Assembly: GCA_030699445.1 (NCBI GenBank)
Contig: JAUYMO010000020.1
Location: 1-42,846, forward strand
From: Candidatus Giovannonibacteria bacterium
GTDB taxonomy: Bacteria; Patescibacteriota; Minisyncoccia; UBA11713; 2-01-FULL-45-33
Reading direction: 5' to 3'
Length of the DNA: 42,846 bases
Shown in pieces: positions 3 through 34,425 of the stretch. Position 1 is the stretch's first letter; each line of letters begins with the position of its first letter. The position numbers and the translations under genes are program-made. The notes below the pieces were generated by a model. That model was not told the origin of the DNA. It searched no databases and was given only the letters and a program-made list of their open reading frames with translations.

Positions 3-728
3 GCGTCGAGTCCGGCGGAGTTCCACGCGATTTTGGGGCAGATTAATCTTTTTTCCAAAATCCGCCTGGTAATTTTTAAAAATATTTTGGAATCTAATCC
101 CAAAATTTTTGAAATTCTTGAAGAAAGCGGCGATTTTTTAAAAAATTCAAAAGACATTTTCGTTTTTTGGGAAAAAGATTTAACGAAGCATAAAGAAGTT
201 TTAGCGTTTTTTAAGAAATTCGCGGAAAAAATGCAGGAAGTAAAAATACTTGGCCCGAAAGAACTGGATTTGTGGCTAGCGAAAAAAGCGCAAATTTTGG
301 GTTTAAAAATCAGCAAAGAGGAGCGCGATGTGATGATATCCGAAGCCGGCGACGGCGCCGAATGGGCGCTGGAAAATGAGCTGGAGAAAAGGGTGCTAGG
401 CGCGCCAGCCTCTTTGAAGTCCGACTTCAAATCCCCAAAGAAGTCGGACTTCTTCCCGGCTAGCGCGGCTTCTCCCTTTCCTTTCATTGAAAAAATGTTT
501 GGCCCGCGCGCGTTAATTGCTTTAAAAGAAATGTCTTTCACCGGCATTGAGCCGCAACAATTTATTTATCCTTTGCTTTGGAAAATAAAACAAAAGCGCA
601 TGGCGGACGCTTATTTCAAAGGCATCCAAGTAGAATCAGCCATGCGAAGAGACCCAAAAAATTCGTACGAAATTCTGGAGCGATTTATTTTTTCCCTGCC
701 CGACCGGCAGGCGGGGCTAAAAGTTTAG
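3..728 (+). CDS. holA: DNA polymerase III delta subunit (5'-truncated by window); contains two palindromic in-frame inserts
   Basis: Frame is open from the window start; 'LENELEK' motif; convergent with rpsT, the usual holA-rpsT arrangement. Confidence 0.75.
   Translation, partial: ASSPAEFHAILGQINLFSKIRLVIFKNILESNPKIFEILEESGDFLKNSKDIFVFWEKDLTKHKEVLAFFKKFAEKMQEVKILGPKELDLWLAKKAQILGLKISKEERDVMISEAGDGAEWALENELEKRVLGAPASLKSDFKSPKKSDFFPASAASPFPFIEKMFGPRALIALKEMSFTGIEPQQFIYPLLWKIKQKRMADAYFKGIQVESAMRRDPKNSYEILERFIFSLPDRQAGLKV
409..459 (+). repeat. 51-bp double-palindrome element (arm GAAGTCCGACTTC), in frame in holA
   Basis: cctcttt-gaagtccgacttc-aaatccccaaa-gaagtcggacttc-ttcccgg; near-identical to 2207-2257. 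Confidence 0.9.
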
Positions 729-945
729 CCAGACGAGATTTCATCCGGGCGGCTTTGTTTTTTTTGATGAGGCCTCTTTTGGCGGATTTGTCTATGGCTT
801 TATAGGCGGCGGAAAGTGAAGCGGGCGACTTTTCAAGAGCCGCCTTTTTTACAGCCTCCTTTAATTTTTCTTTCCATGCCTGATTTCTCTCCCGCCTTTG
901 GCTGGATTGCCTTAAGGCCTTTTTAGCCGATGAAGTTATTGGCAT
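685..945 (-). CDS. rpsT: 30S ribosomal protein S20
   Basis: MPITSSAKKALRQS...AYKAIDKSAKRGLIKKNKAARMKSRL. Confidence 0.97.
   Translation of the reverse strand: MPITSSAKKALRQSSQRRERNQAWKEKLKEAVKKAALEKSPASLSAAYKAIDKSAKRGLIKKNKAARMKSRLAKLLAPPAGRAGKK
695..715 (+). repeat. 21-bp CCTGCC/GGCAGG palindromic element in the holA/rpsT overlap
   Basis: cctgcccgaccggcaggcggg. Confidence 0.85.
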
Positions 946-959
946 AAAAAGAGTTTATA

Positions 960-2939
960 TTAGTTTAAACTTTTAATCAAGTCTCTCAATTCGGCGGCTT
1001 TTTCAAAGTCCAGCGCTTTGGCGGCTTCCAGCATCTCTTCTTCCAATTCCTGTTTTAGTTTTTCTTTGGACATTTCTTTAGACATTTTAGTAAGGTCAAA
1101 TTTTATTTTCTTTTCTTCTTCACCAAAGATATTTTCTCCGATTTCCCGCCTGATTGGCTCGGGCGTAATGCCGTTCTTTTTGTTATATTCATCCTGGATT
1201 TTTCTTCTGCGTTCAGTTTCTTCAATCGCGTTTTTCATGGATTCCGTAATTTTATCCGCGTACATAAGGACGGTTCCGTCGGTGTGCCTGGCCGCCCGGC
1301 CGATTGTCTGGATTAAAGTTTGTTTATTTCTCAAAAATCCTTCTTTGTCCGCGTCTAAAATTATAACAAGCGAAACTTCCGGGAGATCGATGCCCTCCCT
1401 TAAAAGATTTATTCCGACGATCACATCAAACGAACCTTTTCTTAAATCTCTCAAAATTTTATGTCGCTCTAAAGTTTTTATGTCGGAATGCAGATATTCG
1501 GCTTTGATTTTCTCTTCTTTTAAAAAATCCGCCAAATCCTCGGCCATGCGTTTTGTAAGCGTCGTCACGATAACGCGCTCATTTTTCGCGACCCGCTTTT
1601 CTATCTCAAAAATTACGTCTTTGATTTGTCCTTCAGTTTTTCTTATCTCAAGTTTCGGATCCAAGAGGCCGGTCGGGCGGATAATTTGTTCCACGACGGC
1701 GTTATTGCTTAATTTTATTTCATATTCAGCCGGCGTCGCCGAAACATAAACCGTCTGGCCGACTTTTTTTAAAAATTCGTCAAATTTTAAAGGCCGGTTG
1801 TCCATAGCCGAGGGGAGTCTGAAGCCGTAATCCACCAAAACCTGTTTTCTAGCGCGGTCGCCCATATACATCCCGCGGATTTGAGGGATGGACATATGCG
1901 ATTCATCAATAATCGTAATAAAATCTTTGGGCAAGTAATCCAAAAGCGTGGCGGGCGGCTCACCTGCTTTTCTAAACGCGAGCTGCCTGGAATAATTTTC
2001 TATTCCGTGCGTATAGCCGGTCTCGCGGAGCATTTTTAAATCAAAATTAACGCGCTGGGAAATTCGTTGGGCTTCCAAAAGCTTTCCCTCTTTTTTTAAT
2101 TCGGCAACTCGGCTTTTTAATTCCAATTCAATATTGGTAAGTGCCAGCTCAAGTTTGTCCTGCGGGGTCACGAAATGTTTCGCCGGGAAAATTTTTGCCT
2201 CGCCAGCCTCCTCGAAGTCCGACTTCAAATCCCCAAAGAAGTCGGACTTCTTCCCGGCTGGCGCGGTTTCCGATATCTTTTCAATTCGGTTTCCGTTCCA
2301 TTCAATTTTAACCACCGAATCTCCGGATGGAGCCGCGATTTCCACCGCTTCTCCGCGCACTTTAAAAATCCCCGCCCTCAAGTCGTAATCATTCCTTTCG
2401 TACTGCATCTCAACCAGTTTTTTTAAAAAAGCGCGCTGGGAAACCGGCATGCCCTCTTTTATTTCAAGCGCCGCTTTTTCGTATTCAACCGGATCGCCGA
2501 TGCCGTAAATACAGGAAACCGACGCGACAATCACAAAATCTCGGCGGGTGAGCGCCGTAGCGGTTGTGGCGTGGCGCATAGCGTCAATAAAATCGTTTAT
2601 TTTGGCATCCTTTTCTATATATGTGTCGGTTTGCGGAATATAGGCTTCCGGCTGGTAATAATCGTAATAAGAAACAAAATAATGCACGGCATTTTCCGGG
2701 AAAAAAGTTTTAAATTCCTGATAAAGCTGGGCGGCCAAAGTTTTATTGTGGGAAATCACCAAAGCCGGGCGGCCCAAATTGGCGATGGCGTTGGCCATAG
2801 TAAAAGTTTTTCCGGAGCCGGTGACACCTAAAAGCGTCTGATTTTTATTTCCTGCTTTCAGCAAACCGGTTAGCTCGGCAATCGCTTTTGGCTGATCTCC
2901 CTCCGGCTTATATGGCTGATGAAGTTTAAATATTGACAT
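960..2939 (-). CDS. uvrB: Excinuclease ABC subunit B
   Basis: GVTGSGKT, YFVSYYDYYQPEAY, DESH, C-terminal UVR 'LDFEKAAELRD'. Confidence 0.99.
   Translation of the reverse strand: MSIFKLHQPYKPEGDQPKAIAELTGLLKAGNKNQTLLGVTGSGKTFTMANAIANLGRPALVISHNKTLAAQLYQEFKTFFPENAVHYFVSYYDYYQPEAYIPQTDTYIEKDAKINDFIDAMRHATTATALTRRDFVIVASVSCIYGIGDPVEYEKAALEIKEGMPVSQRAFLKKLVEMQYERNDYDLRAGIFKVRGEAVEIAAPSGDSVVKIEWNGNRIEKISETAPAGKKSDFFGDLKSDFEEAGEAKIFPAKHFVTPQDKLELALTNIELELKSRVAELKKEGKLLEAQRISQRVNFDLKMLRETGYTHGIENYSRQLAFRKAGEPPATLLDYLPKDFITIIDESHMSIPQIRGMYMGDRARKQVLVDYGFRLPSAMDNRPLKFDEFLKKVGQTVYVSATPAEYEIKLSNNAVVEQIIRPTGLLDPKLEIRKTEGQIKDVIFEIEKRVAKNERVIVTTLTKRMAEDLADFLKEEKIKAEYLHSDIKTLERHKILRDLRKGSFDVIVGINLLREGIDLPEVSLVIILDADKEGFLRNKQTLIQTIGRAARHTDGTVLMYADKITESMKNAIEETERRRKIQDEYNKKNGITPEPIRREIGENIFGEEEKKIKFDLTKMSKEMSKEKLKQELEEEMLEAAKALDFEKAAELRDLIKSLN
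2207..2257 (+). repeat. 51-bp double-palindrome element, in frame in uvrB
   Basis: cctcctc-gaagtccgacttc-aaatccccaaa-gaagtcggacttc-ttcccgg, flanked by cgccag/ctggcg. Confidence 0.9.
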
Positions 2940-2976
2940 AGTAAAATAAACGCGAACTTAGCTTATCAAAAATTAT

Positions 2977-3012
2977 TTGATTCCACAACTACTATGATAT
3001 ATCATAGTAGTT
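2977..3012 (+). promoter_or_regulatory. Promoter TTGATT-17-TATCAT overlapped by a 26-bp perfect palindrome (putative operator)
   Basis: aactactatgata|tatcatagtagtt at 2987-3012, directly upstream of the TrpR-like gene. Confidence 0.65.
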
Positions 3013-3015
3013 AAT

Positions 3016-3432
3016 ATGCCGCATGTTTCCAGAAAAAAATTAAAGAAGAAAGTTTTTATAAAAATCGGCGAGCAACTGGCCGATACTATCGCCAAAGCCA
3101 ACTCGGCGCGGGAGTTAAGGTGGATTTTTAAGGAACTAATCACGCCGACTGAACGCGTTATGCTGGCGAAAAGGCTGGCGATAATATTGATGCTTGAGCG
3201 CGGTTATTCTTTCAATATTATTCAAAAAACTCTTAAAGTAACGCCGCAGACCATATTAAGGTTTTGGAAAATTACCAAACAGAGCTCGCATAAAGCAGTT
3301 ATTAAAGAAATTTCTTCCAGCAAAGCCAAAAAAGATTTTTGGCAGGAATTGGAAAAACTTATTTTATTTGGCATGCCGCCTCGTGGCCGGCAATGGCAGC
3401 TCATGCGCCGAGTTGCCGCGAAACACTTATAA
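3016..3432 (+). CDS. TrpR-like (YerC/YecD-type) helix-turn-helix protein
   Basis: ELITPTERVMLAKRLAIILMLERGYSFNIIQKTLKVTPQTI resembles the Trp repressor LT..ER..L..R..I pattern. Confidence 0.8.
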   Translation: MPHVSRKKLKKKVFIKIGEQLADTIAKANSARELRWIFKELITPTERVMLAKRLAIILMLERGYSFNIIQKTLKVTPQTILRFWKITKQSSHKAVIKEISSSKAKKDFWQELEKLILFGMPPRGRQWQLMRRVAAKHL

Positions 3433-3450
3433 ACACTTATAAACACTTAT
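3421..3450 (+). repeat. Tandem repeat (aaacacttat)x3 spanning the TrpR-like stop codon
   Basis: Three exact 10-bp units. Confidence 0.95.
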
Positions 3451-3453
3451 AAC

Positions 3454-3483
3454 CAAACCACTATGATATATCATAGTGGTTTG
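3454..3483. repeat. 30-bp perfect palindrome, copy 2
   Basis: caaaccactatgata|tatcatagtggtttg. Confidence 0.95.
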
Positions 3484-3515
3484 AAGACTCTTAGATAAGA
3501 TGTTAATATAATCAT

Positions 3516-4301
3516 ATGGCGAAATGGCATTTTTGGGGAGAAAAAGAATTCTCGGATGTTTATGAGAATATTTATATCCGCGCTTTAAACGAGGATTGGT
3601 TTGAAATAGTGTCTATAATGGTTGACGAAATCAATTCTCTAAAAACTCAAGGAAAGAAGTCAATTTTAGATATAGGTTGCGGAGAAGGGCATACTACGAA
3701 ACAAATATTGGATAGGATAAAAGGAGCTTACGCGTGCGATTTATTGGAGCCCAACGAAAATGCTTTGGCCTCAGCCGAAGCTTTTTTGACCCCAGAAAAT
3801 AATATAGGCAAGCGATATCCTAAATCGCTCGCCACTTTTAAGCCAGAAAAGAAATACGACATAGTGTTTACATCCCATACTAATTATTACTGGGCGCTTA
3901 ATCAGAAAGATTATAATGAGCAGTTAAAAAAATTAATTACATTTCTAAAGCCGAATGGTAAATTACTAATTCTCACGTTGCCGTGGGAGAGCGATCATTA
4001 TCAAATAGCACTTAGGCAGATATATCCAGTTTTCAATTACGCGCAGTATATTATTGATTTCTACAAAAAATTCAGCGTTCAAATAAAGGTTAAAAAACTC
4101 AGGATGCGGCTTTTTATAGGAGATATTTTAAACACAAAGAAACTTTTCGATGTAAAGATCTTTTATCGCTTTATACACAACACAGATTCCTATCCGCGCG
4201 AATCAGAAAGTAGGGCTTTTCTTAAAAAAATACAGAAGTATCAAAAAAATAACTATCTTGATTTTAAGGATTACTTAATTGTTGTCAGTAGAAAGGAATA
4301 A
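3516..4301 (+). CDS. Class I SAM-dependent methyltransferase (AT-rich accessory gene)
   Basis: ILDIGCGEG motif I; KYDIVF; LKPNGKLLI. Confidence 0.9.
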   Translation: MAKWHFWGEKEFSDVYENIYIRALNEDWFEIVSIMVDEINSLKTQGKKSILDIGCGEGHTTKQILDRIKGAYACDLLEPNENALASAEAFLTPENNIGKRYPKSLATFKPEKKYDIVFTSHTNYYWALNQKDYNEQLKKLITFLKPNGKLLILTLPWESDHYQIALRQIYPVFNYAQYIIDFYKKFSVQIKVKKLRMRLFIGDILNTKKLFDVKIFYRFIHNTDSYPRESESRAFLKKIQKYQKNNYLDFKDYLIVVSRKE

Positions 4302-4326
4302 TCAAATGATCAATTTTTACTAACTT

Positions 4327-4356
4327 CAAACCACTATGATATATCATAGTGGTTTG
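4327..4356. repeat. 30-bp perfect palindrome, copy 3
   Basis: Identical to 3454-3483. Confidence 0.95.
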
Positions 4357-4417
4357 GATTTGTAATAGAAATATGCGAAATACGCATTTTGCGCGCAATT
4401 TATGTTATAATTAATAA

Positions 4418-4987
4418 ATGATAGGGCACTTGGAAGGCAAGGTCATATTTAAAGGCGAGCGGCATGTTGTTTTAGATGTGGGCGGAGTCGGATATAAAAT
4501 TTTTGTCTCTGCCTCTTCTAAAAATTTATCCATTGGAGAGAACGCCAAGCTTTGGACGCGCCTGCATGTAAAAGAAGAAGCGCTGGAGCTTTACGGATTT
4601 TCGCATCAGGCGGAATTGGAATTTTTTGAAATGCTGATTTCCATCTCGGGCATCGGCCCAAGGTCGGCCTTGGGCGCGCTTGCTTTAGCGCCAGTTGATT
4701 CTTTAAAGCGCGCGATATCATCCGGCGATACCTCTTATCTCACAAAAATTTCCGGCATCGGCAGAAAAACCGCCGAAAAAATAGTTTTGGAACTGAAAGA
4801 CAAAATGGGCTTCGGAAAAGTTTCATTCGGCGGGGAAGAATTCAAGGAAGACACGGATATTTTGGACGCCCTGATTGCTTTGGGCTATTCCCAAAGAGAG
4901 TCGCGCGAAATGCTCCAAAAAATTCCGTCAAATATCCGCGGCCGCGAAAAAAGATTAAAAGAGGCCTTAAAAACGCGGGAAAAATAA
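4418..4987 (+). CDS. ruvA: Holliday junction branch migration protein RuvA
   Basis: MIGHLEGKV, GVGYKI, ISGIGPRSAL, GIGRKTAEKIVLELKDK. Confidence 0.98.
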   Translation: MIGHLEGKVIFKGERHVVLDVGGVGYKIFVSASSKNLSIGENAKLWTRLHVKEEALELYGFSHQAELEFFEMLISISGIGPRSALGALALAPVDSLKRAISSGDTSYLTKISGIGRKTAEKIVLELKDKMGFGKVSFGGEEFKEDTDILDALIALGYSQRESREMLQKIPSNIRGREKRLKEALKTREK

Positions 4988-4988
4988 T

Positions 4989-6263
4989 ATGCTTGATGAA
5001 ACATTGGCTTCAGTAAAAAAATTTATTCCGAAGCCGATTTTTAATTTTTTCCAGCCATACTATCATTGGTGTTTGGCGTATCTGGCGGCGGCGATTTACG
5101 GATTTCCTTCGCGCAAGTTAAAAATCGTGGGAGTTACAGGCACCAACGGGAAATCAACCGTGGTGCATTTGTTAACTTCCATTTTGGAAGAGGCGGGCGA
5201 GAAAGCCGCGTCGATTTCTTCTCTGCGTTTCCGGATAAATAAAAAAGAAGAAACAAATACTTTAAAAATGACCATGCCGGGCAGGTTTAAGCTCCAAAAA
5301 TTTTTGCGGGAGGCGGTCAAAGCCGGATGCAAATACGGAATTATAGAAATAACATCAGAAGGAATCAAACAGCACCGGCACATAGGCATTGATTTTTACA
5401 TGGCGGTGCTTACCAATGTGACGCCGGAGCATATTGAATCGCACGGGACTTTTGAAAAATACCGCGCGGCAAAAGCGGAGCTTTTTAAAAAAGCGAAAAT
5501 ACATGTTTTAAACGGAGAGGACCCTTCTATTGATTATTTTTTAAAAATTCCTGCCTCGCCGGCAGGCAGGCCCGCCCAGAACCGCATTATTTATTCCAAA
5601 AAAGATTTTCCTCCGAATATACATCTTAAACTTTTGGGCGATTTTAATCTGGAAAATTCAGTCGCGGCGTATCACGCCGCGAAACTTCTGGGAATAGAGT
5701 TTGGCGCAATAAAAAGCGCGTTGGAAAAAACAGAAGGCGTGCCGGGGCGGCTGGAATTTATCCAAAAAGAACCATTTTCCGTGGTGGTGGATTACGCGCA
5801 CACTCCGGACGCGCTGGAGAAAATCTATGAGACTTTGCGTCCACCCGGGAAAACACTCGGTGTTTTTGGGGATTCAACACCGAGTGTTGAGGAGGGTAGA
5901 CGATTGATTTGTGTTTTAGGATCTGCGGGAGGCGGGCGCGACAAATGGAAACGGCCGGAGATGGGGAAAATCGCCGCGAAATTCTGCGATGAAATTATTT
6001 TAACCAATGAAGACCCGTATGACGAGAATCCGGAAGCAATTTTGGCGGAAGTAGAGCGCGGCATCGCGCAAAAAAACAAACTCCGGAAAATTTTGGATAG
6101 AAAAGAAGCGATAGGCGCGGCTTTGAAATCAGCGGAGCCGGGCGACACCGTAATCATCACCGGCAAAGGCGCTGAACCATGGCTCATGGGCCCCAACGGC
6201 TCCAAAATTCCTTGGGATGACAGGGAAGTGGCGAGAGAAGAGCTGGCCAGCGCGCAAAAATAA
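4989..6263 (+). CDS. murE: Mur ligase, MurE-like
   Basis: GVTGTNGKST, PGRLE, VDYAHTPD, GGGRD..KR..MG, NEDP, GKG. Confidence 0.9.
   Translation: MLDETLASVKKFIPKPIFNFFQPYYHWCLAYLAAAIYGFPSRKLKIVGVTGTNGKSTVVHLLTSILEEAGEKAASISSLRFRINKKEETNTLKMTMPGRFKLQKFLREAVKAGCKYGIIEITSEGIKQHRHIGIDFYMAVLTNVTPEHIESHGTFEKYRAAKAELFKKAKIHVLNGEDPSIDYFLKIPASPAGRPAQNRIIYSKKDFPPNIHLKLLGDFNLENSVAAYHAAKLLGIEFGAIKSALEKTEGVPGRLEFIQKEPFSVVVDYAHTPDALEKIYETLRPPGKTLGVFGDSTPSVEEGRRLICVLGSAGGGRDKWKRPEMGKIAAKFCDEIILTNEDPYDENPEAILAEVERGIAQKNKLRKILDRKEAIGAALKSAEPGDTVIITGKGAEPWLMGPNGSKIPWDDREVAREELASAQK
5550..5570 (+). repeat. 21-bp palindromic element, in frame in murE
   Basis: cctgcctcgccggcaggcagg (PASPAGR); exact reverse complement of 34017-34037. 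Confidence 0.9.
5845..5895 (-). repeat. 51-bp double-palindrome element (arm AACACTCGGTGTT), in frame in murE
   Basis: Reverse complement reads cctcctc-aacactcggtgtt-gaatccccaaa-aacaccgagtgtt-ttcccgg. Confidence 0.9.
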
Positions 6264-6293
6264 AAAAAGCCCAGCGATTGAGGCGCCGAGCTT
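6262..6293 (-). terminator. Probable intrinsic terminator for the minus-strand ORFan
   Basis: Minus strand reads aaagctcggcg..cgctgggcttttttt. Confidence 0.55.
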
Positions 6294-6307
6294 TACTGGA
6301 ATTTATT

Positions 6308-6643
6308 TCATAATGGAGGAGGAGGTGATAGCGAAAGCGGTGTTTTTTCATGAATCTCTATCTCATTTAGTTGCCCATCACAGACCCCAATAACAAACAC
6401 GCCGCTTTTCTGATTTAAATCCTTTAACTCCTTCACTTTTATGTCAAAATATTTCTCTTTTCCGTCCTGCTCTCGGAGTGCCTCTTTTACTTTTGGGTCC
6501 TCCGGTGGCAATATTGGCGTGAGCTTTTCTATAACTTGGCTTTCAGAATTAGCCTTTACAATAAATAGATGTGCACGGCTCCATGCTGTCCAGCCATGCA
6601 TACCGAGGCACGGAATAAAAACTTGTGCAAGAAATAAGCTCAT
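6308..6643 (-). CDS. Hypothetical protein (ORFan cassette)
   Basis: Upstream TTGACT/TATTAT promoter and AGGGGG SD; downstream terminator. Confidence 0.7.
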   Translation of the reverse strand: MSLFLAQVFIPCLGMHGWTAWSRAHLFIVKANSESQVIEKLTPILPPEDPKVKEALREQDGKEKYFDIKVKELKDLNQKSGVFVIGVCDGQLNEIEIHEKTPLSLSPPPPL

Positions 6644-6820
6644 AAAACACCCCCTTTCTTCTGTGCCTATAATACTCCCGCAATTTAAGAAGTCAAGTGC
6701 CGCGTAGTATTTTTTGAATTTGCAATTTACACGCCATAGCGGGTTAATTGCAAATTTGATTTATTAGAGTTGCAAAAAATATAGAACGATGCTAGAAAAA
6801 ATAAAGAAGGAGAATTCTTT

Positions 6821-7525
6821 ATGGACAAATTTTGGGTTGAAAGGCGTGAAAGCGGTATTGACAACAAAAAAGCGCTTCTAATTTTCCCTCACTGGGGAGC
6901 GTCCGTTTGGCCGTATAAATGGCTTGCGAAATATTTTACGGATTATCGCATAACTATTTATCAATGTCCTAGTTCGCTTTTAAGTTCGGACATTGAAGCC
7001 ACGTTTCGCAATTTTGACCTTTTGGAGTCAGCGGCTTTGAGCGACATTAAACGTTTAAAGAGCGAAGGCGTTCGCGATTTTAGTTTTTACGGGGTTAGCT
7101 TGGGGAGCGTTATGGCTTTTCGTACCGCCAATATTTTAGCGTTTGCAGACGGTAGGGCGAACGGAGTCGTTGTAAATTTAAGCTGCGCTGATTTCCCGTT
7201 CGCGGTTTGGAACGGCAGCGCGACAGAACCAATCAGAGAAGATTGGAGAGAAAGGGGCGTGAGTTACTCAGAAATAGACCAGGCTTGGTCATATCTTTCG
7301 CCCATTAACAATTTACAGCGCCTCAAGGAAACAAAAATATTATTTTTTGCTTCCAAAAAGGACGCAGTCATGAATTCTCCCAATGTAATGGATTTGGCCG
7401 ACACGCTTGCTAGTAGTTTTCCTAAAGCCGAAGTTTACACGAATGTTTTTCTGGGGCATTATTTGGGCGGCGCCAAGAATTTTTTGCGCCTGCGCACTAT
7501 GAGAAAATTTTTAGATAAACCCTGA
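6821..7525 (+). CDS. Alpha/beta hydrolase fold protein
   Basis: GVSLG nucleophile elbow, later D and GH; AAGGAG SD. Confidence 0.75.
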   Translation: MDKFWVERRESGIDNKKALLIFPHWGASVWPYKWLAKYFTDYRITIYQCPSSLLSSDIEATFRNFDLLESAALSDIKRLKSEGVRDFSFYGVSLGSVMAFRTANILAFADGRANGVVVNLSCADFPFAVWNGSATEPIREDWRERGVSYSEIDQAWSYLSPINNLQRLKETKILFFASKKDAVMNSPNVMDLADTLASSFPKAEVYTNVFLGHYLGGAKNFLRLRTMRKFLDKP

Positions 7526-7576
7526 CCATCCGGCGGGTTTTTTTATTTTTAATCTGTCTTGTGATACCATAAATAT

Positions 7577-8347
7577 ATGGATATAAACGAATCAAAATAT
7601 CTGCATATCAGGCCGCCGAAGGAGGCGCTTTGGGCGCTAGTCGTGTTTTTGGCTTTGGCCAGTATTTATATGGCGGTAAAAATCAACGGCGAATGGAACG
7701 GCTACGGCAGAATTATTCCGCCCAACACCATTACGGTTTCGGGCGAGGGAAAAGTTTTGGTAAAGCCAAATATCGCGGTTATTAATATCGGAGTTATAAA
7801 AGAAGACGCTGATTTGGCTAAAGTTCAGCAAAACGCCGCCGATATAATGGGGCAGCTCACAAAATTTTTAAAAGAAAATAAAGTAGATGAAAAAGATATT
7901 AAAACAACCTCTTACAGCATTAGCCCGCGGTATGATTATAAAGAAGGCGAACAAAAACTGCGCGGTTATGAAGTTTTCCAAAATCTGGAAGTGAAAATAA
8001 GGGACTTAGGAAAAGTTGGCGCGATTCTTTCCGGCGCGGCTGCCCGCGGTGCCAACCAAGTCGGCTCTCTGACTTTTTCGGTGGACGATTCCAAAAAAGC
8101 CAAAGATGAAGCGAGAGCCATGGCCATAAAAGACGCTAGAGAAAAAGCAAGCAGGCTTTCGGCGGATTTGGGAGTGAGTTTAAAAAAAATAGTAAGCTAC
8201 GGAGAATCTGGCGGAGATATTCCTCCAATTTACGCGCAAGCAGATTTCGGTTTTGGAAAGGGCGGGGCCATTTCCGCGCCAGTTCCTGCCCCTTCCGGCG
8301 AAAACGAAATCCGAGTTACGGTTAATTTGACTTACGAAATCAAATAG
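7577..8347 (+). CDS. SIMPL (DUF541) domain protein
   Basis: N-terminal TM; TITVSGEGKV..KPN; DIKTTSYSISPRYDY; GENEIRVTVNLTYEIK. Confidence 0.93.
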   Translation: MDINESKYLHIRPPKEALWALVVFLALASIYMAVKINGEWNGYGRIIPPNTITVSGEGKVLVKPNIAVINIGVIKEDADLAKVQQNAADIMGQLTKFLKENKVDEKDIKTTSYSISPRYDYKEGEQKLRGYEVFQNLEVKIRDLGKVGAILSGAAARGANQVGSLTFSVDDSKKAKDEARAMAIKDAREKASRLSADLGVSLKKIVSYGESGGDIPPIYAQADFGFGKGGAISAPVPAPSGENEIRVTVNLTYEIK

Positions 8348-8350
8348 GGG

Positions 8351-8848
8351 ATGAAAATTTTTCTTATTTTGCACAATGTCCGAAGTTTGCATAATGTCGG
8401 CTCAATTTTCCGGACGGCCGAAGGACTGGGCGTTAAAAAAATATATTTAACTGGATATACGCCGGAGCCATATGATATTTTCGGAAAACTTCGGAAAGAT
8501 TTTCAAAAAACCGCGCTCGGCGCGGAAAAATATTTGGAGTGGAAGCAAGTTAAAAATATTTTCGCTTTAATTAAGCGTCTCAAACAAGACGGCGTTAAAA
8601 TAGTCGCGCTGGAGCAATCAAAATCTTCTATTAATATTAAAAAATTCAAACCGCGCGCAAAATTTGCGTTGATTTTGGGAAACGAAGTCACTGGCATTCC
8701 GAAATCCGTTCTTAAAAAATGCGATAAAATTATAGAAATCCCCATGCGCGGCAAAAAAGAGTCGCTGAATGTTTCAGTAGCGGCAGGAATTGCGCTTTAT
8801 GCTTTGCGCAACTTAGACGTCGGACGTCTAAGTGAGACGTCTAAATGA
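8351..8848 (+). CDS. TrmH/SpoU family RNA methyltransferase
   Basis: HNVGSIFRTA, LGNEVTG, IPMRGKKESLNVSVA. Confidence 0.95.
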   Translation: MKIFLILHNVRSLHNVGSIFRTAEGLGVKKIYLTGYTPEPYDIFGKLRKDFQKTALGAEKYLEWKQVKNIFALIKRLKQDGVKIVALEQSKSSINIKKFKPRAKFALILGNEVTGIPKSVLKKCDKIIEIPMRGKKESLNVSVAAGIALYALRNLDVGRLSETSK

Positions 8849-8868
8849 CCCAAACCAGGTTTAGGTCA
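8811..8868. repeat. Palindrome cluster at the 3' end of the TrmH gene
   Basis: acttagacgt-cgg-acgtctaagt; partial repeat gagacgtctaa; tgacccaaac-cag-gtttaggtca. Confidence 0.8.
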
Positions 8869-8940
8869 GTTGAAATAGGTACTAATTTTTGGAAATAAAA
8901 AGGAACGATATCATTATCGTCCCGATTTCGTTAAGAATTT

Positions 8941-9138
8941 TTACTCGGTTACTAGGATAGTCAGCGACCCGGTTTTGCGGACAGCCTCCAGATGATCATC
9001 TATCCGAACCTTTCCTTTTTCGTTTGAAAGCGCAATGGTCTCGAGGATTCTTTGGTCTTCTGCAGAATCTGCAGTTAGTATGATTTTGTGGCTATACCAA
9101 AGATCCAATTTCTCTCCGACTGTTTGAATTGTTCTCAT
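8941..9138 (-). CDS. Small hypothetical protein (ORFan cassette)
   Basis: AGGAGGTG SD; TTGACA..TGCTAGACT promoter; downstream hairpin. Confidence 0.7.
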   Translation of the reverse strand: MRTIQTVGEKLDLWYSHKIILTADSAEDQRILETIALSNEKGKVRIDDHLEAVRKTGSLTILVTE

Positions 9139-9233
9139 TTTTCACCTCCTTTTTCGAGTCTAGCATATATAAAAGCATTGTCAAGCCCCAATCTTGGCTC
9201 TAAAAATTAGCACCGATTATAAAGGGGAGGTAA

Positions 9234-10169
9234 TTAATAACTTGTCTCCGTGATTAATTTTCCAAGCTGGCCAAAAAGCTGGATGTTTTCGTGCCGGTTG
9301 CCCCACATTTCGGCGTTTTTGCCGAGATAAATTCTCCATTCCGGCTGGTTGAAATCGGAATCGTTTTTATGGTCGGCCACGCACCCGGCGTAGCTCGCGT
9401 GCTGCGAAACGAATTCGGCGCAATCATTATTTATTCCGGTGTCGGCGTTGATAGTGGGCGAGACGCAGGAATTCAAGCTCTCAATATAATCTATGCACCT
9501 GTTATTTAAATTTCTCGGCAAAGCCAAGTCCGATATCCTCGGGCAGGAAAAAGACATTGATGGAGAAATATTTTTTCCTTGCGCCATATAACCGGAACAT
9601 TTGTTTATTTTAAAATTTTTACCCAAAGCACTTTCGCCCGTGGCTATAATCGCGCGCTCGCCGTATTTCAAAGAAATATTATTTCCATATTCATCTTTGC
9701 CGATGGTCGCCGAAGCCCTGTCCCTATTTTGGAGCGTGAGGCCCGAAATAACCGCGGTCTGCTTATTTTCATAATCAAAATTGTCCAGAGAAATATATTC
9801 TTGCGAAAAATCTCCGTAAGCAGCTCCGCCGGTGTTAACGCGAAGCGGATTTTTTAAAGGAGCGCTTGTTGCGGGCGCAGGCGGAGCCGGAGCGGGCTGC
9901 GCCGCGCTTTTAATTGGATTTTGTATTGTCGGAGGCGGCGTGGTTATGTTAGGCAAAGTGAAAAAAGAGCTGTTTGTGGATTGGTTTGTCGGCGCAGTTT
10001 CCGGCGCCGTGGGGGAGCCGGAAGTTCCGGCGGCGCCGTGCTCCGGAAATTGTCCCGGGGCTTGCGTTTGCGGGCTTTTGGTGAAAAGATTTAAGTTTTT
10101 TCTTTGAAAACTAAAAACTATGCCGATGATGATAAGCACGAATATCAGCCACATGACATCTTTATTCAT
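9234..10169 (-). CDS. Membrane-anchored hypothetical protein with Pro/Thr-rich linker and Cys-containing extracellular domain
   Basis: Start reassigned to MNKDVMWLIF at 10169; N-terminal TM, low-complexity linker, several Cys. Confidence 0.8.
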   Translation of the reverse strand: MNKDVMWLIFVLIIIGIVFSFQRKNLNLFTKSPQTQAPGQFPEHGAAGTSGSPTAPETAPTNQSTNSSFFTLPNITTPPPTIQNPIKSAAQPAPAPPAPATSAPLKNPLRVNTGGAAYGDFSQEYISLDNFDYENKQTAVISGLTLQNRDRASATIGKDEYGNNISLKYGERAIIATGESALGKNFKINKCSGYMAQGKNISPSMSFSCPRISDLALPRNLNNRCIDYIESLNSCVSPTINADTGINNDCAEFVSQHASYAGCVADHKNDSDFNQPEWRIYLGKNAEMWGNRHENIQLFGQLGKLITETSY

Positions 10170-10171
10170 AT

Positions 10172-10186
10172 TTGCTATAATAGCAA
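10172..10186. promoter_or_regulatory. Palindromic bidirectional extended -10 promoter
   Basis: ttgctat-a-atagcaa gives TGCTATAAT (+) and TGCTATTAT (-), each 7 nt from an ATG. Confidence 0.7.
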
Positions 10187-10188
10187 GT

Positions 10189-10350
10189 ATGGGAAAAGAA
10201 GGCGAGCTATTTCCGGTAATAGAAAAAAAGCCGCATGGCATAGAAAAGCTACGCGAATTGGAGAAGGAACTTGAAGCCAAAAAAAAGATAAGAGAACAAA
10301 AAGAGCGCCAAAAAAGAATAGACGAGATTTTAAAAAAAGATAAAAAATAA
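10189..10350 (+). CDS. Small charged hypothetical protein
   Basis: MGKEGELFP...; ATG 7 nt after TATAAT; ends 3 nt before the DoxX gene. Confidence 0.6.
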   Translation: MGKEGELFPVIEKKPHGIEKLRELEKELEAKKKIREQKERQKRIDEILKKDKK

Positions 10351-10353
10351 ATT

Positions 10354-10701
10354 ATGCTAAGCGTATTGCCTCAATTTTTAGATTATAGTTTCTACGCCCC
10401 CACAATTTTGAGGCTTGCCTTGGGGGCAGTTTTTTTAATTCACGGATACCCAAAACTTTTTGAAGCTCGACTGCGGCTCGCGGGTTTGCTGGAATTCATA
10501 GCCGGCGTTTTATTGGCCATCGGGCTTTTTACCCAAGCCGCCGCCTTGGTTCTGGCGGTTGAACTTTTAATTATAATTATTTGGTTTAAACGCGGGCAAA
10601 AATTCGTGGGCGGGTGGGAATTTGATTTTGTTTTACTTATTATGGCGCTCGCGCTTTTGGTTTTGGGCTCCGGCGCCTGGGCTTTTGATTTGCCTTTATA
10701 A
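10354..10701 (+). CDS. DoxX family membrane protein
   Basis: LRLALGAVFLIHGYPK, LEFIAG.LL.IGLFT, GGWEFD, GSGAWAFD. Confidence 0.92.
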   Translation: MLSVLPQFLDYSFYAPTILRLALGAVFLIHGYPKLFEARLRLAGLLEFIAGVLLAIGLFTQAAALVLAVELLIIIIWFKRGQKFVGGWEFDFVLLIMALALLVLGSGAWAFDLPL

Positions 10702-10702
10702 T

Positions 10703-11314
10703 ATGGACGCCGGAGACATTGTTTTTGATATTGAAACCCAGAAATCTTTTGATGAAGTTGGCGGACAAAGCCATTTTGATAAACTTGGCGTGTCCGTGGT
10801 CGGCGCGTATCTTTACGGGGCAGGCTTGCCCGGCCGACAGGCGGGAGAATATTTAACATACGAAGAGCACGAAATTCCGGCTTTTGAAAATCTGCTGAAA
10901 AAAGCCGGACGCGTGGTCGGTTTTAATATCCATCATTTTGACTTGGCGGTTTTACAGCCCTATATTTCCTGGAATTTAAAAAATCTGCCGACGCTGGATT
11001 TGATGGATGACGTAAAAAAATCGCTGGGCTTCCGGCTTCGTTTGGACAGCTTAGCGGACGCGACTTTGGGCGTCCGGAAAAGCGGGGACGGCCTGCAGGC
11101 CTTGAGATGGTATAAAGAAGGCAAAATGGATGAAATAAAAAAATATTGCCTGAAAGACGTGGAGATTACAAAAAATCTTTATGAATTTGGCAAAAAGAAC
11201 GGCCATGTGCTATTTTATTCAAGAGACACGGGCGGCAAGGTGGCGGTACCCGTGGCTTGGGAGAAGCCGGAAAAGCTAAACATGGAAAAAAATGTCCAAC
11301 TCAAAATTTTTTAA
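10703..11314 (+). CDS. RNase H-like/DEDD 3'-5' exonuclease (YprB-like)
   Basis: VFDIETQ, VGFNI..FD, YCLKDV; start reassigned to 10703. Confidence 0.88.
   Translation: MDAGDIVFDIETQKSFDEVGGQSHFDKLGVSVVGAYLYGAGLPGRQAGEYLTYEEHEIPAFENLLKKAGRVVGFNIHHFDLAVLQPYISWNLKNLPTLDLMDDVKKSLGFRLRLDSLADATLGVRKSGDGLQALRWYKEGKMDEIKKYCLKDVEITKNLYEFGKKNGHVLFYSRDTGGKVAVPVAWEKPEKLNMEKNVQLKIF
10825..10845 (+). repeat. 21-bp palindromic element (degenerate), in frame
   Basis: cttgcccggccgacaggcggg (LPGRQAG). Confidence 0.8.
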
Positions 11315-11774
11315 CATATTGGGCGCGGAATTAAACTTGGACGAAGTAGTCCAGGCGATTTACGATTTTGTTAAATTAAAACCGCAAAGAAAATATAAAA
11401 TAATTATCGGCTCGGATTCTTCAGCGAGAAACGAAGTGGCTTTAATTACCGCAATAACCATTTGGCGCGTTGGAAACGGCGGAATTCATTTTTGGACGAA
11501 ATCCGAAGTTATGAAATTCCACGGCTTGAGGGAAAGAATTTATAAAGAGGCAATCCAATCCATAACTTTGGCGCAGGAATTGCGCGGAAGATTAAAAGAC
11601 GCGCTGGGCGACGAATTTTTCTGGGACGACCAGATTCATATTGATGTCGGCGAGAACGGACCGACAAAAGAATTGATTGATACCGTCGTTGGAATGGCGA
11701 AAGGATACGGCTTTGATGTTCAAATAAAACCAAACGCCTTCGGCGCTTCGACTGTCGCGGATAGACATACTTAA
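11292..11774 (+). CDS. YkuK-family (DUF458) RNase H-like protein
   Basis: IIIGSDS, R.G.GG, ERIYKEA..S, IHIDVGENG.T, KPNAFGASTVADRHT. Confidence 0.9.
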   Translation: MSNSKFFNILGAELNLDEVVQAIYDFVKLKPQRKYKIIIGSDSSARNEVALITAITIWRVGNGGIHFWTKSEVMKFHGLRERIYKEAIQSITLAQELRGRLKDALGDEFFWDDQIHIDVGENGPTKELIDTVVGMAKGYGFDVQIKPNAFGASTVADRHT

Positions 11775-11779
11775 AATTC

Positions 11780-11901: not shown

Positions 11902-12678
11902 ATGCCAGAACTTCCGGAAGTGGAGATTACAACAAGAAAATTGAAAACGCTTATTTTAGGAAAGCGGATTTTAAATTTTAATAGGAAAATTTTAAATATT
12001 GAGCGGAAAGGAAAGGCGATTTTGATTTATCTTTCCGGCGGGAAAATTTTGGGATTTCACCAGCGGATGAGCGGGAAGCTTTTGGTTGTAGGGCGCGCCC
12101 GCCTGTCGGACGGGCAGGGCCGGGATGATAAACACATAAGAAAAAGATTTAAACTTTCCGATGGGCGAGATTTAGTTTTTCACGACGTGCGCAAATTTGG
12201 TGTGATTTGGTATGGCACAGCCAAAAAAGTTTTGAAAGACAACTATTTTAAAACTTTGGGCGAAGACGCGCTAACCGCAGGGCTTCAAAGTATTAAGAAT
12301 ATTTTATTAAATCGGAAAGGAAAAATCAAAGCATTCTTATTAAATCAAAAAAATCTTGCTGGAATCGGCAATATTATGGCGGACGAAATTTTATGGAAAG
12401 CGAAAATCCATCCCGAACGAGAGATTAAAACACTTCGATATATCGAAGTAAAAAGATTATGGAAGGCGCTCAAATTTATTTTAAAAAAGAGCATCAAACT
12501 CGGTGGTTCAACGATGCGAGATTGGCTTCATCCGGGCGGGGAGAAAGGCGGATATTTCAAAAAAAGGTATGTTTATGGCAGAGAAGGCCAAAAATGCTTT
12601 CGCTGTCGCGCTAAAATCTCGCGAAAAAAAATCGCCGGCCGCTCCAGCTATTTCTGCCCGCGATGCCAAGTGCTATAA
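11902..12678 (+). CDS. mutM: Formamidopyrimidine-DNA glycosylase
   Basis: MPELPEVE, D.RKFG, GIGNIMADE, C-terminal zinc finger. Confidence 0.95.
   Translation: MPELPEVEITTRKLKTLILGKRILNFNRKILNIERKGKAILIYLSGGKILGFHQRMSGKLLVVGRARLSDGQGRDDKHIRKRFKLSDGRDLVFHDVRKFGVIWYGTAKKVLKDNYFKTLGEDALTAGLQSIKNILLNRKGKIKAFLLNQKNLAGIGNIMADEILWKAKIHPEREIKTLRYIEVKRLWKALKFILKKSIKLGGSTMRDWLHPGGEKGGYFKKRYVYGREGQKCFRCRAKISRKKIAGRSSYFCPRCQVL
12098..12118 (-). repeat. 21-bp palindromic element, in frame in mutM
   Basis: Reverse complement reads cctgcccgtccgacaggcggg. Confidence 0.8.
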
Positions 12679-12786: not shown

Positions 12787-12790
12787 TTTA

Positions 12791-21073: not shown

Positions 21074-21156
21074 TTTATAGTTATCTCCGGCGCCCTGCCT
21101 GCCGGCAGGCAGGCATCCCCGGCAACCGCGGAAGCTTGGTGGAAATCAGAGGATAA
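21074..21156 (+). pseudogene. Relic second rplC 3' end, frameshifted by a 20-bp palindrome
   Basis: FIVISGA[cctgcctgccggcaggcagg]IPGNRGSLVEIRG* versus the active LLAILGAVPGHRGSLVEVRG*. Confidence 0.85.
21094..21113. repeat. 20-bp perfect palindrome of the CCTGCC/GGCAGG family
   Basis: cctgcctgcc|ggcaggcagg. Confidence 0.95.
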
Positions 21157-21174
21157 AAGGGTTATAATTAGCAT

Positions 21175-22826: not shown

Positions 22827-22835
22827 GCTATGTCC

Positions 22836-22858: not shown

Positions 22859-22878
22859 ATGATGATATTATTAAATTG

Positions 22879-23061
22879 ATGGCAAAAAAGAAAATTAAAA
22901 AAGACATACTTACTTTTAACGCTGTTTTTTCCGAAGAAGACGCTGGCGGATATAGTGTGAGCGTACCGGCTTTGCCGGGATGTTTTTCGCAGGGGGATGA
23001 TTTTGAGGAGGCGGCGAAGAATATCGCAGAAGCAATTGAACTTTATAAGGTAGCCACATGA
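22879..23061 (+). CDS. hicB: HicB-family antitoxin (C-terminally shortened)
   Basis: [34 protein letters not shown]. Confidence 0.9.
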
Positions 23062-23198
23062 AATTTATTCGTATGGGTTCTGAGGGCGCAAAAGAATCCA
23101 TTGTTGTTCCAAATCACAAAGTTTTAAAGAAAGGAATGTTGCATGATATTTTAAAAAAGCTCGGACTTAATATTGAAAAATTTAAAGAGCTTGGTTGA
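23049..23198 (+). pseudogene. hicA: HicA toxin remnant lacking its N-terminus
   Basis: GSHMKFIR...[23 protein letters not shown]; no start codon upstream of GSH. Confidence 0.8.
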
Positions 23199-23424
23199 GG
23201 CGAGAGGATAAATAGCTATATTTTGAAGCTCAAAAGCCACCCTTGCGGGGGGTTTTTGGTTGTGCTAATATCTAAATCACTTGTGGGAAGAGAACCAAAA
23301 TACGGTTTAGGAGGATAAAAAGGCGCAAAATCCCGGGTTTTTAACCGAGGAGGTTCTGCCTCCTTGTTTTTCGTTGCTTTAGCAACGATCCCGCCATCGG
23401 CGGGATGAAAGCTAAAGCTTTCAT

Positions 23425-33044: not shown

Positions 33045-33052
33045 AAATAGTT

Positions 33053-33655
33053 ATGAAAAATCAGCCTTATAATTTTACTTTTATCGGACGGTCCGGTTGC
33101 GGCAAAGGCACGCAGGCGGATCTTCTCAAAAAATTATTGGAAGAAAAAAGCGGAACTGACAGTGCACTCTATGTTTATACCGGCGCGCGCTTGAGGGAAC
33201 TTGCCGGTCACTCGGAGTTTTTTACGGCAAGATTGTTAGATGAAAAAAGTTTAAAATCCGGCAAGCTAACACCGAACTCTTTAGCTATTTGGGCCTACGC
33301 AACCGAATTTATTCATGGAGTCACCGAAAGCAACCATATTATTATAGACGGCTCACCGCGCCAGGCGCTGGAAGCGGAAGCGTTGGATGAAATGTTTGAT
33401 TTTTATGGCAGAGAAAATGTTTTTCATATTTGGCTGAATGTAAGCGAGGAATGGGCAACCGCGCGTATGAAAGAAAGGGGGCGGTCAGATGACAGCCCGG
33501 AGAGCATTAAGCACCGTTTTGCCTATTACGAAAGAGAGGTTGTGCCGACAATTGAATTTTATAAAAAAGATAAAAAACACAAATTTATAGAAATCAATGG
33601 CGAGCAGACGATGGAAAAAGTTCACGAGGATATCGTGAAAGCGATTGAGTTATGA
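33053..33655 (+). CDS. adk: Adenylate kinase (short-LID type)
   Basis: GRSGCGKGTQA, IDGSPR, RGRSDD; follows secY. Confidence 0.9.
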   Translation: MKNQPYNFTFIGRSGCGKGTQADLLKKLLEEKSGTDSALYVYTGARLRELAGHSEFFTARLLDEKSLKSGKLTPNSLAIWAYATEFIHGVTESNHIIIDGSPRQALEAEALDEMFDFYGRENVFHIWLNVSEEWATARMKERGRSDDSPESIKHRFAYYEREVVPTIEFYKKDKKHKFIEINGEQTMEKVHEDIVKAIEL

Positions 33656-34425
33656 TTATTAAAAATAAAAAAGAGCTGGAAATTTTGCGGGAAGGCGGCA
33701 AGAGACTTGCCGCTGTTTTGGCTGAAGCCGCGTGCCACGCGATTGCCGGAATTTCCACAAAGGAACTTGACGCGCTCGCGGAAAATTTGATTTTAAAATC
33801 CGGAGGCGCGCCGTCTTTTAAAGGATATAAAGTGCGGGGCGTGCCGCGTCCCTACCCGGGTTCGCTTTGCGTTTCAATAAACGAAGAAGTGGTGCATGGG
33901 TTGCCGTCCGACCGCGAATTAAAAAACGGCGATATCGTCGGCTTGGATATCGGGATGTGGTTTGAAGGCCTATGCACTGATACGGCGATGACTGTTTTAA
34001 TTGGCGGAGGGAAAAACCTGCCTGCCGGCGAGGCAGGTAAATTAATTGACGCGACAAAAAAATCTTTGGAAATCGGCATCGCCGAAGTCCGTGCCGGAGC
34101 GCGTGTTGGCGATATTGGCTTTGCTATTCAAAAATATTTAGAAACAGAAGGATTCGGTGTGGTGCGCGAACTTGTTGGGCACGGCGTTGGGCGGGCAGTG
34201 CATGAAGACCCCGAAATTCCGAATTGGGGCCATCGCGGCGATGGTCCCGAGCTCCGCGAGGGAATGGCAATCGCTTTAGAACCAATGGCGACCGACGGCA
34301 GCCCGAAAGTAAAACTTTCCAAAGACGGCTGGACATGGCTTACGCGCGACTGCTCCCGCGCCGCGCATTTTGAGCATACTTTGGTGGTGAAAAAAAACGG
34401 GGCGGAAGTGTTGACAAGGATTTAA
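33652..34425 (+). CDS. map: Methionine aminopeptidase type I
   Basis: SINEEVVHG, GHGVG..HEDP, EPM, AHFEHT. Confidence 0.99.
   Translation: MIIKNKKELEILREGGKRLAAVLAEAACHAIAGISTKELDALAENLILKSGGAPSFKGYKVRGVPRPYPGSLCVSINEEVVHGLPSDRELKNGDIVGLDIGMWFEGLCTDTAMTVLIGGGKNLPAGEAGKLIDATKKSLEIGIAEVRAGARVGDIGFAIQKYLETEGFGVVRELVGHGVGRAVHEDPEIPNWGHRGDGPELREGMAIALEPMATDGSPKVKLSKDGWTWLTRDCSRAAHFEHTLVVKKNGAEVLTRI
34017..34037 (-). repeat. 21-bp palindromic element, in frame in map
   Basis: cctgcctgccggcgaggcagg (LPAGEAG). Confidence 0.9.

Follow-up and report, generated by a model that had tools for sequence, protein, structure and literature searches.

How a nearly palindromic DNA segment of only 20 to 21 bp comes to be repeated, in frame, within conserved genes is the question raised by contig JAUYMO010000020.1 of a Candidatus Giovannonibacteria bacterium genome, which carries six copies of such a segment, hereafter the element. 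The whole stretch of DNA analysed, referred to as the window, spans 42,846 bp and is contig C52 of this genome (G000; 657,832 bp in 58 contigs, 43.8% G+C). Comparison with related genomes supports the view that the copies are insertions, and the element is best interpreted as a tiny non-autonomous mobile element resembling repetitive extragenic palindromic (REP) sequences and Rickettsia palindromic elements (RPE), a reading to which we assign a probability of about 0.7.

A preliminary description of the window, made from its letters without database searches, had listed six copies, all of which were found exactly at the positions given there (Table 1). The peptides quoted in that description were recovered by open reading frame (ORF) analysis, and the copy at 34017 is indeed the exact reverse complement of the copy at 5550. 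The pattern CCTGCC-N(0-12)-GGCAGG matches six times in the window against an expectation of 0.03, with none of 100 shuffles reaching six; as two pairs of matches are nested, these correspond to four loci.

Insertion at Empty Sites

Two genomes served for comparison: G001, a syntenic genome of the same genus (643,010 bp, approximately 84% nucleotide identity to G000), was used for DNA alignments, and G003, a complete genome of the same family (651,549 bp in one contig), for protein comparison. Approximately 25 G000 host proteins have an exact gap of seven residues at the element in their G003 orthologue, and six sites are filled in both genomes. DNA alignments to G001 reveal crisp 21-bp gaps with no target duplication, as at the empty sites of the methionine aminopeptidase (MetAP) gene map (ggagggaaaaa/taaattaat, the slash marking the insertion point) and the Mur ligase gene (aaaatt/ccagcc). 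The preliminary description had argued that precise removal of a copy restores plausible sequence and that no consistent target duplication is visible; the real empty sites of G001 read GKNKLID in map and KIPAQ in the Mur ligase, duplication is absent at the clean empty sites against G001, and the orthologue alignments proposed there as a check return exact empty sites of 21 bp or seven codons in both G001 and G003. A script scoring empty and filled sites, which used its own scan of G000 (58 copies, one above the curated census of 57), found 25 sites empty in G001, 3 filled, and 30 unclear or unaligned. In the opposite direction, 8 of the 15 G001 copies correspond to empty sites in G000 and 1 to a filled site, indicating that G001 has insertions of its own.

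Structure of the Element and Census in G000

A search of G000 tolerating two mismatches, followed by curation, yielded 57 copies, of which 46 measure 21 bp and 11 measure 20 bp; the figure is a minimum, since some contigs break off within a copy. Every variant fits CCYGCCY-NNN-CGGCAGGCRGG; the commonest, CCTGCCCGTCCGGCAGGCGGG, is palindromic but imperfectly so, with two fixed positions at which its arms disagree. In its predicted single-stranded DNA fold, the 21-mer pairs over 6 bp (CCTGCC/GGCAGG), closes a loop of 5 nt and leaves a tail of 4 nt unpaired, which reads CCYG or CRGG according to strand; for the 20-mer, the predicted stem measures 8 bp and the loop 4 nt. The base following the element is C or T in 50 of the 57 copies, and since this pyrimidine is already present in empty sites it belongs to the target; the insertion junctions are mostly AT-rich. 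Nested copies occur at G000:C5:8381-8421, at G000:C34:2932, where a 66-bp palindrome holds the copy in its loop, and at locus L304:11422. When the 150-nt flanks of 228 copies were compared all-against-all with the element masked, shared context was found only in orthologues and neighbouring copies. A full-length parent insertion sequence (IS) was considered and rejected, the isolated half-sites in G000 being 8-mers only that bound no longer element.

Individual copies show further features. The non-coding copy at G000:C28:9267-9294 carries additional CCTG units on one arm, (CCTG)4CCGG(CAGG)2, which suggests tetranucleotide slippage within the element. Two 20-bp copies (G000:C25:14533-14562 and C34:11748-11777) run straight into gTTATCCACA, the DnaA-box consensus, and this flank is conserved in G001 and G003.

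Reading Frames and Tolerance in Proteins

Copies within genes are filtered by selection on length and frame, as the preliminary description had proposed. In G000, 43 of the 21-mers lie in called coding sequences (CDS) and 3 outside, as against 5 and 6 of the 20-mers (Fisher p = 8e-4, or 1.2e-4 with a 57-aa ORF left out of the gene set), so that the 20-bp forms are depleted in genes rather than equally common there. Over all lengths, 48 of 57 copies (84%) are in CDS at a coding density of 88.5% (p = 0.3), and genes are therefore not avoided. The 43 coding 21-mers are distributed over the six possible frames as 9/0/6/0/6/22 (chi-square p = 1e-8). Cys and Arg would be encoded in the two frames that do not occur, and the four in use yield Gly/Pro/Ala-rich peptides (LPAGxAG, PAxPAGG, LPxRQAG and RLPDGQ); because 21 nt amount to seven codons and four frames give peptides of this kind, copies survive in genes as loop insertions. 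The related claim that the 20-bp form is restricted to dead sequence stands for the window, where the 20-mer lies in a relic of rplC, and falls genome-wide, given the five 20-mers in called ORFs. Four of these five are in long intact genes (369, 828, 932 and 922 aa), and each 20-mer in a long gene is accompanied by one further base, for a net gain of 21 nt. The placement of 20-mers outside genes is a strong tendency, not an absolute rule.

Insertion at several places of one protein is seen in MetAP. An alignment of 40 Giovannonibacteria-type MetAPs contains at least four independent sites with element-type heptapeptides, namely NLPAGEAG (G000), PASPAGE and RLAGGQA at one site, PASLTGG and PASSAGG, and VRLPDVQ and ASLPDGQ. 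Judged by the names of its MetAP homologues, G000 belongs to Candidatus Giovannonibacteria. Surface loops had been expected as insertion points, and in the AlphaFold (AF2) model of the G000 protein (mean pLDDT 91.5) the insert is placed in a predicted low-confidence surface loop between strand 107-116 and helix 127-144, the sole stretch below 50 being residues 121-124 at the start of the insert.

Gain and Loss of Copies

The history of individual copies is most evident in GyrA, where the peptide SLPAGRQ (a 20-mer plus one base) is present in 4 of 17 family genomes (G000, G003, G005 and G008) and the site is empty in both congeners of G000. In a gyrA phylogeny from which the insert had been left out, the filled G000 and the empty G001 are sisters with support of 100/99, the four filled sequences do not form a clade (approximately unbiased test, p = 4.3e-5), and four changes are needed. 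As the filled sequences are no clade, either the same nucleotide was hit repeatedly or an old copy was precisely lost several times. GGC flanks the insert on either side, an arrangement that would permit loss by slippage. Two further sites are filled in G000 and G003 and empty in G001, and old shared copies have decayed by point mutation, as at G000:C24:1798 and G000:C13:2786.

A selected functional signal, such as a DNA uptake sequence, a protein-binding site or an RNA hairpin or terminator, would account for the strong identity among copies and across phyla, for a GyrA copy that is nearly unchanged in four genera despite diverged flanks, and for the terminator-like place of one window copy (695-715) between convergent genes. 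Such a signal is nonetheless very improbable as the explanation: copies originate as 21-bp insertions and not by point mutation, the old shared copies just named decay, close relatives carry anything from 0 to 32 copies, 84% of the copies lie within genes in either orientation, and Rfam finds two tRNAs and nothing else in the window. A DNA uptake sequence, which would originate by point mutation, be present throughout a lineage and act by uptake bias, was rejected on the insertional origin of the copies and on their number among relatives (0-32).

Distribution across Phyla and Phages

Within the family, 18 of 19 genomes contain exact copies, 1-17 each, with G000 holding 32 exact copies, and exact copies are found in 6 of 21 genomes from other families of the class. 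Across an even sample of 300 genomes of the phylum, surveyed for exact copies, 45 have the element, including bursts of 28, 24, 22 and 11 copies in each of which one variant dominates; a reversed-pattern control gave 0 matches in 301 genomes.

Beyond the phylum, a collection of 185,579 species contains at least 119 loci in many phyla. Among the matches listed from this collection, the bases at the three free positions are strongly uneven, with 45 of the 84 tallied belonging to four variants, and among the matches listed at low-GC loci, 48 of 93 copies have a best spanning ORF of at least 200 aa, mostly in the same four frames (of the 48, 9 use a Cys-encoding frame and one uses the other frame that G000 lacks). 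A Bacteroidetes-labelled metagenome-assembled genome (MAG) holds 133 exact copies, a 0.7-Mb genome 10, and three large genomes, including a complete Niabella, 1-2; complete or isolate genomes with copies comprise Niabella, Aequorivita, Flavivirga and Aquiflexum. In an Ignavibacteriales-like hybrid kinase, ARLPVGQ is present in two close homologues and replaced by an exact seven-residue gap in two others. A viral collection yielded 80 stretches with 111 exact copies, and on one phage-like contig 14 kb contain 19 copies or near-copies, some of them within terminase and tail-sheath genes. Judged by these sequence matches, the element is not specific to G000, the same variants occurring across the phylum, in other phyla and on phage contigs.

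As most of these genomes are MAGs, 21 is a common smallest k-mer and some G000 contigs end within a copy, an assembly artefact, in which k=21 graph steps generate a 21-nt near-palindrome, was also weighed. It is hardly credible: copies are present in complete and isolate genomes and in the single-contig 651-kb genome, independently assembled genomes share orthologous copies, which bear point differences, and an artefact would neither avoid Cys-encoding frames nor bring compensating single bases.

At four loci of other phyla (L118:1150-1330, L167, L120 and L122), the 21-mer lies within or beside tandem heptanucleotides (CATAACT, CCAATAT and CAAACTC), three heptamers equalling 21 nt. These arrays recall the TAACTGA heptamers reported for Beggiatoaceae in the accessible part of PMC4853749.

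Candidate Mobilising Enzyme

The preliminary description placed the mobilising enzyme outside the window, and no candidate is present there; seven paralogous Y1-like genes are located on other G000 contigs (Table 1). Their products, a roughly 230-aa family of about 220-260 aa each with an HUH motif, score 28-38 bits against NF047646, for which the cut-off is 80. Y1 HUH enzymes act on substrates similar to the imperfect, tailed hairpin of the element. The co-occurrence check proposed with the preliminary description gave PF01797 matches in 35 of 45 element-bearing genomes versus 103 of 255 element-free ones (odds ratio 5.2, p = 3e-6), as against 21/45 and 81/255 for an RVT_1 control (odds ratio 1.9, p = 0.06), values in which the Fisher tests overstate significance because the compared genomes are kin. 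According to the accessible part of PMC3733652, RAYT/Y1 enzymes are the suspected mobilisers of REPs. The best enzyme candidate is a Y1 HUH protein (IS200/RAYT-like) of the family with seven G000 paralogues, a tentative assignment with the odds somewhat against it.

Besides the kinship of the genomes, several observations weigh against a mobile element with a Y1 partner. None of the seven G000 Y1 genes is flanked by the element; they have their own, differing hairpins, and the nearest element lies 569 bp to 8.4 kb away. Among the matches listed from other taxa, a Y1 homologue is near the element at 2 of 119 loci, and at 0 of 80 viral loci. The multi-copy genomes G093 (6 copies) and G320 (5 copies) have no match to PF01797, G006, G025 and G088 have 7-8 Y1 matches yet no or a single copy, and the copy-rich Bacteroidetes-labelled MAG encodes relatives of the G000 Y1 family that are only 32% identical. 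Of the 10 genomes of the phylum with at least four copies, 8 have a Y1 match and 7 have one to the RVT_1 control, so the link is weakly specific there. IS200/IS605 elements show a replication-strand orientation bias; the complete genome G003 has none, with about 11+/8- and 7+/6- copies on its two replichores. No target consensus was found at the compared junctions beyond the following pyrimidine. Logan contigs from three DNA runs of one study, compared over positions 1-20000 of the window, bridge the copies at 695, 10825 and 12098 without a 21-nt gap, although such contigs hide rare variants. Finally, the preliminary description spoke of a self-spreading unit, which the patterns of gain and loss fit, and it is from those patterns that spreading is inferred.

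Some of these points would be expected if the element moved without a dedicated transposase, a short hairpin or duplex serving host enzymes as break filler or being copied by template switching, with loss by hairpin slippage. Such a model fits the findings that no enzyme gene is physically linked to any copy, that orientation in G003 is random relative to the replichores, and that there is neither a target consensus nor a duplication; the GGC...GGC bracket at GyrA would permit slippage loss, and identical variants in very different phyla would be explicable without co-transfer of an enzyme. Most junctions, however, are without microhomology, as in map (aaaaa/taaat), which disfavours template switching; the patchy bursts in single lineages, together with the Y1 association (odds ratio 5.2), point to a factor present in only some genomes; and the conserved imperfect hairpin with its fixed tail, the most abundant variant everywhere, resembles a protein recognition site. 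We therefore consider movement by host processes unlikely, if a more serious competitor than a functional signal, and retain the reading of a REP/RPE-like element that is mobilised in trans.

Other searches for a partner were unproductive. TnpB, present in 5 of 301 genomes but in no element-rich one, was rejected; the difference in gene content was likewise dropped as a pointer, approximately 160 G000 genes of at least 100 aa having no G001 match, which is too many, and G001 also having its own insertions. A type IIB-like excising nuclease, a likeness to the CRISPR type I-F repeat hairpin and an origin as a transposon footprint were also considered. Among the candidates themselves, at least five of the seven Y1 genes are bracketed by inverted or direct repeats of their own, for instance the C9 gene by ..CTTGGGAAC..GTTCCCAAGTGGA on either side, and look like small autonomous or terminal inverted repeat-associated units. 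At G000:C45:8549-9177, an RVT_1 match is split across two adjacent frames and may represent a broken or frameshifted retroelement gene.

Proposed Mechanism and Significance

Copies enter new sites without target duplication, sometimes within another palindrome's loop; they are gained in bursts specific to single lineages and decay by point mutation, and some sites show either precise loss or renewed insertion. For a mobile element of this kind, mobilisation would occur in trans and most likely on single-stranded DNA, and phages may help to transport the element between hosts. The perfect 20-mer could be a one-base-shorter variant or a derivative arising by palindrome 'correction'. In its boldest form, which we regard as speculative and on balance improbable, the proposal is that the element would be the smallest transposable element yet: a pan-bacterial, phage-borne 21-nt single-stranded DNA hairpin, moved in trans by the Y1 HUH family or by still unknown machinery common to many phyla, that would enter transiently single-stranded or hairpin DNA, be precisely excised, and seed seven-residue loops in essential proteins of Patescibacteria, the Bacteroidota/Ignavibacteria group and their phages.

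An element of this type would lower the size limit of selfish DNA to seven codons. It lives mainly in essential genes (GyrA, MetAP, Mur ligase, Fpg and ribosomal protein tails) of a 0.65-Mb genome, and it explains short Gly/Pro/Ala-rich insertions that resemble lineage-specific features and can mislead alignments, trees and structure models. The tolerated insertion sites constitute a natural map of permissive loops in conserved proteins, and because identical variants occur in distant phyla and phage contigs, the element offers a ready tracer of horizontal contact. It also raises the question of which enzyme recognises the hairpin.

Host Genes, rplC Relic and Other Repeats

The copies of the window and the Y1 genes of G000 are collected in Table 1, in which the host gene products are those assigned by Pfam. 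The ORF at 3-728, labelled holA in the preliminary description, had no Pfam match.

Table 1. Copies of the element in the window, the associated rplC relic, and Y1-like genes on other contigs of G000.
Feature	Position	Strand	Location and encoded peptide	Comparison with G001 and G003
21-bp copy, CCTGCCCGACCGGCAGGCGGG	695..715	+	overlapping 3′ tails of convergent ORF 3-728 (+), PDRQAGL, and rpsT (ribosomal protein S20) 685-945 (-), PPAGRAG	21 bp missing at orthologous G001 place
21-bp copy, CCTGCCTCGCCGGCAGGCAGG	5550..5570	+	in frame, Mur ligase gene 4989-6263, PASPAGR	empty in both G001 and G003 by exactly 21 bp / 7 aa
degenerate 21-bp copy, CTTGCCCGGCCGACAGGCGGG, 2 mismatches	10825..10845	+	3′-5′ exonuclease-like gene (3′-5′ exonuclease / RNase H-like) 10622-11314, LPGRQAG	7-aa gap in G003 orthologue; G001 alignment less clean
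21-bp copy, CCCGCCTGTCGGACGGGCAGG, 1 mismatch	12098..12118	-	fpg/mutM (Fpg/MutM) 11902-12678, RLSDGQG	21-bp / 7-aa gap in G001 and G003
perfect 20-bp palindrome, CCTGCCTGCCGGCAGGCAGG	21094..21113		non-coding relic of original rplC 3′ end	
21-bp copy, reverse complement of 5550 copy	34017..34037	-	in frame, methionine aminopeptidase (M24) gene 33652-34425, LPAGEAG	exact 21-bp empty site in G001, 7-aa gap in G003
relic of original rplC 3′ end	21114..21159	+	GNRGSLVEIRG followed by stop	93% identical to G001 rplC 3′ end
Y1 (IS200/RAYT-like) gene	C42:13093-13764			
Y1 (IS200/RAYT-like) gene	C17:747-1514			
Y1 (IS200/RAYT-like) gene	C45:2917-3612			
Y1 (IS200/RAYT-like) gene	C53:3220-3864			
Y1 (IS200/RAYT-like) gene	C9:4291-4950			
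Y1 (IS200/RAYT-like) gene	C43:7138-7857			
Y1 (IS200/RAYT-like) gene	C42:24592-25263			

The non-functional rplC relic named in the preliminary description is recognisable by comparison with G001 rplC. The working rplC of G000 ends on a diverged replacement piece at about 21030-21072, with the original 3′ end displaced, and no source of this piece was found in G001, G003 or the rest of G000. At the site of the 20-mer, G001 reads ggcgc/catccccggc, which identifies 21094-21113 as a true 20-bp insertion. The relic is followed (region 21030-23231) by a 2.1-kb segment without a counterpart in G001, which encodes DUF5678, a type IV secretion system (T4SS)-pilin-like protein, a SocA/Panacea antitoxin domain, an unknown 130-aa protein and a HicB-like antitoxin, and is a small toxin-antitoxin island within the ribosomal protein operon.

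A second in-frame palindromic repeat of approximately 66 bp, with a DNA fold of -42 kcal/mol, is found in the window at 401-466 and 2201-2266 and elsewhere at G000:C31:6282-6332, C15:10382-10432 and C34:2896-2987, the last being split by a 21-mer sitting exactly in its loop. It encodes ..ASLKSDFKSPKKSDFFPA.. within the holA-like ORF and uvrB, and its peptide type also occurs in some MetAP homologues; five copies are present in G000 (6 BLAST hits), with 6 hits in G001 and none found in G003. A 49-bp stretch is common to the Mur ligase gene (5846-5894) and a 465-aa ORF at 41012-42409 (41161-41209), both being 94% identical to G001_C7:10207-10255, and may stem from a motif conserved in Mur ligases, from gene conversion or from a further small repeat. 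The 15-bp palindrome CCCGCC-N3-GGCGGG at 23390-23404, just upstream of rplD, is part of a roughly 40-bp motif found again on C33 (G000:C33:11559-11572). Other GC-rich palindromes in G000 include a 24-bp type (CCAGCCTCGCCGAGTCTAGGCGGG) and a 25-bp type (CCTTCCCCCTTACGAAGGGGGAAGG).

Comparison with Known Systems

MITEs (miniature inverted-repeat transposable elements) have terminal inverted repeats and a target-site duplication and measure about 50-500 bp. A MITE was rejected here, there being no duplication at clean empty sites and no longer element bounded by half-sites in G000. Very short palindromic coding repeats fused in frame were reportedly described from Methanocaldococcus jannaschii by Suyama et al. 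in 2005; these are said to be archaeal and species-specific. IS200/IS605 elements move by single-strand 'peel and paste', entering the DNA 3′ of a fixed sequence of four or five nucleotides and causing no duplication. The element resembles them in the lack of duplication, the precise empty sites, a possible recognition of the hairpin, a polar flank preference (a purine beside the tail) and its co-occurrence with Y1 genes. It differs in having a target preference of one base (50/57), no replication-strand bias in G003, and a single hairpin in place of distinct ends at left and right, and TnpB was not found in element-rich genomes. The IS200/IS605 family is listed in the accessible part of PMC6006769.

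The closest likeness is to REPs, which the accessible part of Di Nocera et al. 2013 (PMC3733652) describes as multi-copy imperfect palindromes that are GC-rich and short, at 20-40 bp, with a hairpin stem of 6-9 bp, a loop of 4-5 nt and an unpaired terminal tetranucleotide. The element is similar in each respect; its 21 bp are at the lower size limit, and 57 copies in 658 kb agree with a dispersed palindrome of 20-40 bp. According to the same text, some GTAG- and CGTC-tagged REPs are intragenic and encode extra residues, as the element does, and CGTC REPs, like the element, have no transposase gene flanked by the repeat. A search of the literature for the exact 20-21-nt element strings gave no match, the supplementary intragenic-REP lists of PMC3733652 lying outside that search, and searches by topic led only to work on REPs, RPEs and MITEs. 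The tail of the element, however, is CCYG/CRGG and not GTAG or CGTC, CGTC occurring only within the loop of the commonest variant, and the AT-first stem and CCA tail given for CGTC REPs in that excerpt of PMC3733652 are missing. The element is 84% intragenic, whereas REPs are mostly extragenic and located downstream of genes, and its copies are singletons rather than head-to-head dimers, with variants in several phyla and phage contigs. Nor does G000 show the REPtron layout, in which a cognate RAYT gene is flanked by the repeats.

RPEs (Ogata et al. 2000, as covered by the accessible part of PMC2229807) share with the element the character of in-frame palindromic selfish DNA that is tolerated as an extra peptide in conserved genes and has no transposase gene. 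They measure 105-146 bp and are described there from Rickettsia and relatives, whereas the element has 21 bp, adds exactly seven residues and occurs across phyla. What is new in relation to both REPs and RPEs is thus the minimal size of the element, its mostly intragenic life, and the presence of identical variants across phyla and phages.

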